A DNA stretch of 63,304 bases, counting the filler, from Globobulimina sp. (lineage: Eukaryota): assembly GCA_003354225.1 (NCBI GenBank). It is 16 parts of 16 records of this genome, joined end to end, with 100 filler letters (N's around TTAATTAATTAA, not from the genome) between each part and the next. Parts side by side here need not be neighbours in the genome. Positions count along the whole stretch, not along the records: positions 35,687 to 39,547 come from PIVH01001975.1; 15 more parts are not named here. One strand, given 5' to 3'. Positions 35,692-36,159 of the stretch are shown one piece after another. The notes beneath the pieces were generated by a model. It was not told the origin of the DNA, searched no databases, and saw only the letters and a list, made by a program, of their open reading frames with translations. The translations under genes and the position numbers were made by a program. The first letter of the stretch is position 1. Every line of letters starts with the position of its first letter.

Positions 35692-36159
35692 CTACCCTTT
35701 CCCTCGACCTCTATTCATAAAATAACTATCATCGTCATCATCACTCTCAGACATCGACGAATGACTATCAATATCCATCACGATATCCATAGTACTCATA
35801 CTATTGTTATCAGTCGAATGACCCCAACTAAATGCTGAAGTTGAAAGGGTAGTGGGTAATATACCATTTCTTGTATTACAAGCGTTGTCGTGATCGCTTG
35901 TTGAACCCCCTGACACTGCGCAACTTTTACAACATGTATCAAATGCATTGCCTCTTGCTGTAAATCCTGGAATATATTCTTATAAAAACCAAAAGAAACT
36001 GCCGAAACAGAACAAAAAGACACAACCTGGATTACATGTTTTACCACACGTGTACTTACAATATATCGTTGCCGATTTGCGAGCTAGTTTTGTTGCTAAC
36101 TGTTTTCTTGGTGCTTTGCCACCTGTTGATTTTCTTGCGGTTTGCTTGGTTCGTGCCAT
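35692..36159 (-). CDS. Histone H3 tail-mimic protein: H3 residues 1-29 fused to a Cys/His module and acidic tract; intron 35967-36026; may be 3' truncated
   Basis: Exon 1 reads [45 protein letters not shown]. Exon 2 reads [29 protein letters not shown]...[16 protein letters not shown]. No histone-fold sequence is visible. Confidence 0.8.

Follow-up and report, generated by a model that had tools for sequence, protein, structure and literature searches.

In the window analyzed here, a 63,304-nt stretch of DNA from the foraminifer Globobulimina sp. (GenBank assembly GCA_003354225.1), contig PIVH01001975.1 (positions 35687-39547) carries at its low-coordinate end a gene that joins histone H3's N-terminal tail directly to a small Cys/His module, with no K36 region between them. 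The gene is real, nuclear, transcribed, and spliced, and sequence comparison places its product in a conserved family whose named sources are three rotaliid foraminifera. Sixteen unrelated contigs of 3,858 to 3,868 bp, arranged in size order with N44-TTAATTAATTAA-N44 spacers between them, make up the window, and for this reason arguments from gene neighborhood are restricted to 35687-39547. The features of the gene are listed below (X numbers denote public sequencing runs; P numbers denote related proteins).

36027..36159, minus strand: exon 1, from the start codon (36159-36157) through the H3 tail into the Cys/His module, of which it encodes the first half
36070..36156, minus strand: copy of histone H3's N-tail, H3 residues A1 to A29, with A24L as the sole change
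35967..36026, minus strand: intron 1, 60 nt, GT..AG, 68% A+T, absent from X6 and X5 contigs
35857..36066, minus strand: Cys/His module of about 50 aa, interrupted by intron 1
35696..35966, minus strand: exon 2, encoding the rest of the module followed by a Ser/Asn/Thr-rich linker, the acidic tract, and RGRGKG
35725..35751, minus strand: acidic Ser/Glu/Asp tract SESDDDDDS, which is SDEDDDD in P0001 and SSDDDD in P0009
35695..35712, minus strand: RGRGKG motif, after which the mRNA continues GGKKKAVKKK (loose end of X5 contig 9)
35687..35695, minus strand: donor of intron 2, G/GTAGTGGGT, with an apparent stop codon TAG at 35694-35692 inside it; the contig ends here

The unspliced open reading frame (ORF) that begins with the H3-tail peptide is 59 aa long (35980..36159, minus strand), with the coordinates and strand given by an earlier reading of the same DNA, referred to here as the sequence-only reading. 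An in-frame stop codon lies 4 codons upstream of the ATG at 36159, which agrees with the claim that the tail sits at a true N terminus. When exon 1 was compared with PDB chains by phmmer, only histone H3 was matched (best E = 3.4e-11); 133 distinct sequences were found at E ≤ 0.001, and all 60 of those shown are H3, H3 chimeras, or H3 peptides. In the printed alignment 29 of 30 positions are identical, from M1 to A30, and the only mismatch is a Leu where H3.3 has Ala. The proposed 28/29 identity to H3 with A24L was thus reproduced, and the same alignment shows that the tail keeps K4, K9, S10, K14, K18, K23, K27, and S28, as had been stated.

Eight public runs match parts of the contig, none of which is recorded as RNA, and four of them (X1, X5, X6, and X8) were compared. 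X5, X6, and X8 behave as RNA, because both GT..AG introns of the adjoining oxidase gene are missing from their contigs. An X6 contig of 152 nt, which comes from a related organism judging by its differences from the window, omits exactly 35967-36026, with 54 letters of exon 2 on one side of the junction and 92 letters of exon 1 on the other. It reaches 36117, well within the tail (X6 record 16 spans 36026-36117), and its copy has T31M and Y33S directly after the tail, as translated from differences at 36068 and 36062. X5 contig 10 matches 35853-35971 and then has nine loose letters equal to 36032-36040, giving the same intron 1 junction, and X5 contig 11 covers 36026-36121 with 0 differences. 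Since the X6 and X5 contigs, from two studies, lack exactly this stretch, intron 1 is confirmed at 36026-35967, where the sequence-only reading had placed it. The orthologue P0001, of 134 aa, also supports the junction, its sequence reading across it for 10 residues. Exon 1 ends in ...CNPG, with the codon for G split by intron 1. Exon 2 is spanned from 35695 to 35890 by contigs of X1, X5, and X8, and the X1 contigs leave 35946-36203 without cover.

An alternative intron, with a consensus-like GTAAGT donor at 36059-36054 and an acceptor at 35959-35958, also keeps the frame. Because both models do so, sequence alone could not settle the choice; the alternative was rejected because the X6 and X5 contigs use 36026/35967, and it is also ruled out in that it would delete the stretch that encodes CKY.CGK.CNPG in relatives.

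The stop codon 5 nt from the contig edge had been flagged as a possible intron donor. X5 contig 9 (562 nt), X8 record 20, and X1 record 1 all depart from the window at 35695, and the donor there resembles the GTT.. donors of other introns. X5 contig 9 extends 374 letters beyond 35695, unlike the window, and the 30 letters shown keep the frame and encode GGKKKAVKKK. The TAG at the contig edge is part of a splice donor, and the mRNA continues. The expectation that further sequence follows the edge was likewise borne out, both by this Lys-rich continuation and by longer relatives, which carry a Lys-rich region and a SAP domain. Among the window's 16 contigs, no SAP, INYL, or KKAVKK motif, second module, or canonical H3 was found that would represent the downstream exons. 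X1 otherwise retains introns and is DNA-like, yet X1 record 1 leaves the window at 35695 as the spliced contigs do; mixed content, a different allele, and an odd contig end are possible causes.

Searches with exon 2 (90 aa) gave no match among proteins of 159 to 2000 residues and a single match among proteins of similar length, P0001, which has the EukProt name Globobulimina turgida. Exon 2 is 69% identical to it over 60% of the length, and the whole spliced product is identical to it at 95 of 118 aligned positions. An exhaustive HMMER pass with exon 2 over 1.84 billion representatives returned 7 proteins at E ≤ 0.001, and a profile of the module returned 18 at the same threshold among 1,864 candidates. 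The relatives examined number 19, namely, 17 of the 18 profile matches (P0019 was left out) and the cluster mates P0009 and P0010, with overlaps merged. Six of the 19 have the H3 tail at their start (P0001, P0003, P0004, P0006, P0009, and P0010). Five of these are named as Globobulimina, Bolivina, and Nonionella (rotaliid Foraminifera) and start MARTK; the sixth, P0006, is a MERC record that starts MSARTK. H3-tail proteins lacking a histone fold, for which the sequence-only reading had proposed a search of protists, are found in this set. The copy extends up to 34 residues in P0003 and P0009 and is limited to the first 12 in P0006. Across the 15 pairs formed by six long-tail proteins (P0006 was excluded, its tail having only 12 residues), pairwise identity is 407/435 (94%) in the tail versus 515/750 (69%) in the module. 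Better conservation of a disordered tail than of the folded module adjoining it suggests that the tail interacts with many partners, as H3 itself does.

The sequence-only reading had also claimed that no histone fold is present, and the relatives agree. Pfam searches reported no histone family for P0001 (E ≤ 10), for P0003, P0004, and P0006 (E ≤ 1), or for P0009 and P0010 (E ≤ 0.1), and P0001 matches PDB H3 chains over residues 1 to 34 only. Within the contig, no histone fold follows the tail, the module and the acidic tract being found there instead; the last exons lie off the contig. Family members are built in the order tail, module, Ser/Asn linker, acidic tract, Gly/Lys/Arg motif, Asn-rich linker, conserved INYLELDD box, and SAP domain, and the spliced product of the window contains both the Ser/Asp tract and the RGRGKG motif described earlier. 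P0009 (183 aa) and P0010 (245 aa) run into Asn-rich sequence, and P0010 aligns with the tail-less SAP paralogues P0012, P0013, and P0017. In these three paralogues the SAP domain (PF02037) scores above the Pfam cutoff of 23.9 bits (27.3, 26.9, and 28.6 bits, respectively). They share the module, the Lys-rich region, the Asn-rich linker, the INYLELDD box, and the SAP domain with the H3-tail family but have a Ser/acidic-rich N terminus in place of the H3 tail.

The Cys/His module is defined by ten columns that are invariant in 16 aligned sequences (C3, C7, G14, G19, T24, C25, C26, C29, H39, and C43), and all ten positions, six Cys and one His among them, are present in the spliced product of the window. 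This changes the Cys/His pattern proposed in the sequence-only reading in one respect: DTCCKSC-x9-H-x3-C is present, but the third Cys of its C-x3-C-x3-C is confined to the foraminiferal branch and is not a conserved feature of the module. Pfam reported 0 families for exon 2 and only chance-level matches for the 16 module sequences. The best match in a profile search of the PDB was ovomucoid, at E = 0.79. A confident AlphaFold2 model of the P0001 module reached a mean predicted local distance difference test (pLDDT) score of 90 with the 16-sequence alignment (a first run with 8 sequences, at pLDDT 62, was discarded), and Foldseek found 0 matches to the pLDDT-90 model in the PDB at E ≤ 10. A search of the ESM Atlas with P0014 gave no usable match. 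A complex prediction for the module and an H3 tail (P0009 residues 1 to 36) gave no answer (score 0.00, no controls) and counts neither way. The module is most likely a small zinc-binding adaptor, given that its 50 residues include one invariant His and six invariant Cys and that the proteins are of an intracellular type. Pattern-limited scans gave 55 pattern matches in GTDB prokaryote genomes and 54 in IMG/VR viral contigs, with 0 relatives of the module in either. The module is an uncurated domain, apparently restricted to SAR (stramenopiles, alveolates, and Rhizaria).

Two known domain types were considered for the module and rejected. For a Kazal-type inhibitor domain, the ovomucoid match already given is not significant, and in its printed alignment the module has no Cys opposite that of ovomucoid "PVCG," the third one in the Kazal pattern. 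TRASH and FCS-like zinc fingers gave sub-threshold scores only (15.2 bits versus a cutoff of 27, in P0002) and appeared in 1 of 16 members, at E = 0.095.

Outside the tail-bearing proteins, the module is attached to several kinds of enzyme. P0002 (586 aa) has three tandem modules before a microbial-type PARG catalytic domain (E = 6e-28). This protein, encoded on a 10,730-bp ENA contig, has Ser/Arg-rich linkers of eukaryotic appearance. Of 21 metagenome and metatranscriptome loci (L numbers), 19 have an ORF with the module pattern and none has the H3 tail. In eleven of these 21 loci there is a match to P0011's DUF3626 region, with three modules each except in L016 and L017, which are fragments. 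Counting proteins as well, the fusion of module and DUF3626 is found in these 11 loci (L003, L006-L008, L010-L013, L016, L017, and L021) and in 4 proteins (P0011, P0015, P0016, and P0018), and Pfam confirms DUF3626 for L003, P0011, and P0015. The architecture of this set consists of EF-hands, a SopF-type DUF3626, and three C-terminal Cys/His modules. The name of one member, symbB, presumably marks a Symbiodiniaceae gene model, and the EF-hand/DUF3626 protein is widespread in marine protists and probably of a dinoflagellate type. DUF3626 is the domain of Salmonella SopF (PMC6682159), and SopF is an ARF-activated ADP-ribosyltransferase (PMC12560355). The domain content of the set suggests a Ca-regulated ADP-ribosyltransferase.

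Other loci add further partners, including EF-hands and a PARP catalytic domain (E = 7.4e-20) in L002, a protein kinase with EF-hands in L004, PH and PPPDE peptidase domains in L018, and WW domains in L014. Three unrelated families of ADP-ribosylation enzymes (PARG, PARP, and DUF3626) therefore carry the module. The module-bearing enzymes of marine protists (P0011, P0015, L003, L002, and P0002) have the same ten invariant module positions as the foraminiferal family but differ in having no H3 tail, a shorter loop before the His, and enzymatic partners instead of SAP. Two loci (L001:1-810 and L005:33-974) have two modules and then a C-terminal domain of about 110 residues. These C-terminal domains look PARP-like by eye, an assignment that was unconfirmed, with 0 Pfam families at E ≤ 0.001.

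The Gly/Lys/Arg motif of the family resembles the tail of histone H4. GRGKGG, which corresponds to H4 tail residues 2 to 7, is read across the exon 2/3 junction in the window mRNA and is followed by R-V-H-K-K in P0009, whereas P0004 and P0010 have GGKGLGKGG, a run of 9 contiguous H4 residues. The reference for this comparison was the H4(1-22) peptide as printed in PMC11681865. On these matches, a true copy of the H4 tail is likely in P0004 and P0010 and possible in the remaining members (P0009 and the window mRNA).

Taken together, the architecture of the family leads us to favor, by a modest degree, a DNA- or chromatin-tethered carrier of histone tails that would serve as a surrogate, buffer, decoy, or recruiter for the histone-tail machinery. 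The SAP domain and the Lys-rich region would hold the protein on DNA, and the free H3 N terminus and the H4-like motif would be substrates of ordinary histone-tail enzymes and targets of reader domains, so that the surrogate, buffer, or recruiter would work independently of nucleosomes. The putative zinc-binding module may link the tails to ADP-ribosylation signaling, because elsewhere it is found on ADP-ribosyl transferases and hydrolases and on Ca-regulated kinases. Foraminiferal cells thus appear to display histone "handles" on nonhistone proteins. A bolder version, which we regard as doubtful, is that these proteins are foraminiferal "foldless histones," SAP anchored, with an N-terminal H3 tail and an internal copy of the H4 tail, and that the module docks ADP-ribosylation enzymes for the tails. 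If this were true, histone-code marks could be written and read on DNA in the absence of a nucleosome, and perhaps inherited.

Several observations weigh against a tethered carrier of histone tails. The RNA nature of the runs is deduced from their spliced contigs, no run being recorded as RNA. Not every mark is preserved, because S10 and S28 vary in the family: position 10 is Cys or Pro and position 28 is Leu in some members. Gene conversion from H3 genes could partly account for the high identity of the tail; canonical-H3 contigs are abundant and agree with the tail-coding DNA at 90% or higher, and one of them departs from the window at 36088 and goes on with letters whose translation is canonical H3. 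In P0010, the one full-length protein that bears the tail, the SAP domain scores 14.2 bits, below the Pfam cutoff. For the window protein, whose C-terminal exons lie off the contig, a SAP domain is predicted from the paralogues only, and the orthologue P0001 ends without one, being either complete or cut. A phmmer search of the PDB with the H4-like stretch of P0004 gave 0 hits, so that H4 was not picked up; these stretches are Gly/Lys rich, a composition that may explain the failure. Because kinases, a PPPDE peptidase, and WW domains are further fusion partners of the module, its link to ADP-ribosylation is an enrichment and not a rule.

Two other explanations accept the tail as functional and assign it a different role, and we consider both unlikely. 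The tail might be a handle for nuclear import or for chaperones only, an importin-recognized signal with no role in histone marks. Importin4 is described as recognizing a localization signal in histone N-terminal tails (10.1101/181321), and the remaining features of the family, SAP and Lys-rich runs, are of a nuclear type. However, the tail-less P0013 and P0017 already have strong Lys/Arg runs that are potential import signals, and neither 94% identity over 29 residues nor the free Ala1 found in every long-tail member would be needed for import. P0006, moreover, retains the first 12 residues, which form the reader-binding tip, and not the basic middle. Alternatively, the tail and module could act mainly as a substrate or regulator in an ADP-ribosylation hub, with the module binding ADP-ribose or the modifying enzymes. 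This would fit the fusions of the module to PARG, PARP, and DUF3626 enzymes and the retention of both Lys-Ser pairs (K9S10 and K27S28) in the window's tail, which we take to be the main serine ADP-ribosylation sites of H3. It fits less well with the absence of S10 or S28 in P0004, P0006, and P0010, with the presence of the module on kinases, a PPPDE peptidase, and WW proteins, and with the outcome of the Foldseek (PDB) and Pfam searches, in which no known ADP-ribose-binding fold was recognized in the module.

Much less probable than either is a histone H3 variant with a long insert, whose histone fold would be encoded by exons past the contig edge. The mRNA does extend at least 374 nt past the edge, of which the first 30 letters were read, but their product, GGKKKAVKKK, resembles the Lys-rich regions of the relatives. 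P0009 and P0010 go on into Asn-rich sequence, and P0010 goes on into SAP, with no histone family reported for them, and the PDB matches to H3 end at residue 34. The least credible explanation is an artifact or a dead gene, that is, a chimeric assembly of an H3 fragment with unrelated DNA or a decaying H3 pseudogene. The shortness of the contig and the lack of X1 cover over 35946-36203 would allow it. It is opposed by the X6 contig, which joins exon 2 to exon 1 (54 and 92 letters) and continues into the tail; by the X5 contigs, which match with 0 differences; by the same join of tail and module in six relatives; and by open frames in which the invariant residues of the module are intact.

Most known histone mimicry involves motifs of 4 to 10 residues, carried by proteins of viruses and, in a few cases, of animals; influenza NS1 and G9a are examples of short histone mimics. 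The closest described class to the window protein is that of the H3 N-terminal mimicry proteins (H3TMs; VRK1, BCL11B, PCLAF, and others), cellular nonhistone proteins in which the N terminus left after removal of Met copies the start of H3 in the form M-Z-R-X-K, where Z permits that removal (Chen et al. 2021, PMC8166343). H3TMs can engage PHD and Tudor readers and can be methylated at K4, as described there (PMC8166343). The M-A-R-T-K of the window protein fits M-Z-R-X-K at a true N terminus. However, about 4 to 5 residues are copied in H3TMs (PMC8166343) compared with 29 here; the window tail also includes K9, S10, K14, K18, K23, K27, and S28, and the partner domains are unrelated. The short internal mimics (NS1, G9a, SARS-CoV-2 ORF8, SetDB1, and NOP16) are likewise nonhistone proteins that imitate a segment of the H3 tail and thereby engage its machinery, but they do so with few residues that are often internal or C-terminal, in contrast to the whole tail in register at a free N terminus found here, which a cellular gene family conserves. 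Canonical H3 has the same residues 1 to 29 except for A24L, and its contigs match the tail DNA as noted above; it differs from the window protein in its K36 region and from the relatives in the histone fold, for which they have no Pfam match. A literature search that left subscription journals and supplements outside its scope found nothing on foraminiferal H3-tail proteins or on the motifs of the module. Histone mimicry itself is known; this case adds an undescribed module and an unexpected combination of an H3 tail with probable H4-tail pieces.

On the same contig, the neighbor of the H3-tail gene is a multicopper oxidase gene (Cu-oxidase_2 and Cu-oxidase_3; 36469-38088, minus strand). Its introns, near 36895-36961 and 37742-37840, are spliced out in the X5, X6, and X8 contigs, and past the oxidase domains lies a terminal Cys-rich extension of some 70 residues (about 36469-36690). 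At 38117-38202, X1 depth rises to 392 from a surrounding level of about 5, loose ends flank the stretch on either side, and X6 skips 84 nt there with ends that are not GT..AG. This stretch is probably a dispersed repeat or a variable insertion. The preceding contig of the window carries a G-protein alpha subunit gene (PF00503, E = 6.5e-47; 34702-35577, minus strand) that reaches the contig edge.

A free-living protist lineage thus keeps an entire H3 tail, in register and at a free N terminus, on a nonhistone protein, and probable pieces of the H4 tail and a DNA-binding domain occur in the same family. The repeated fusion of the module to PARP, PARG, and SopF-type enzymes makes it a candidate new adaptor of ADP-ribosylation signaling. 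Should the tails be modified and read as genuine ones are, antibodies to H3 marks such as K4me3, K9me3, K27me3, and S10ph would probably also detect these foraminiferal proteins, the family would be a natural experiment on histone tails uncoupled from the histone fold, and the histone code would not be confined to nucleosomes in foraminifera.

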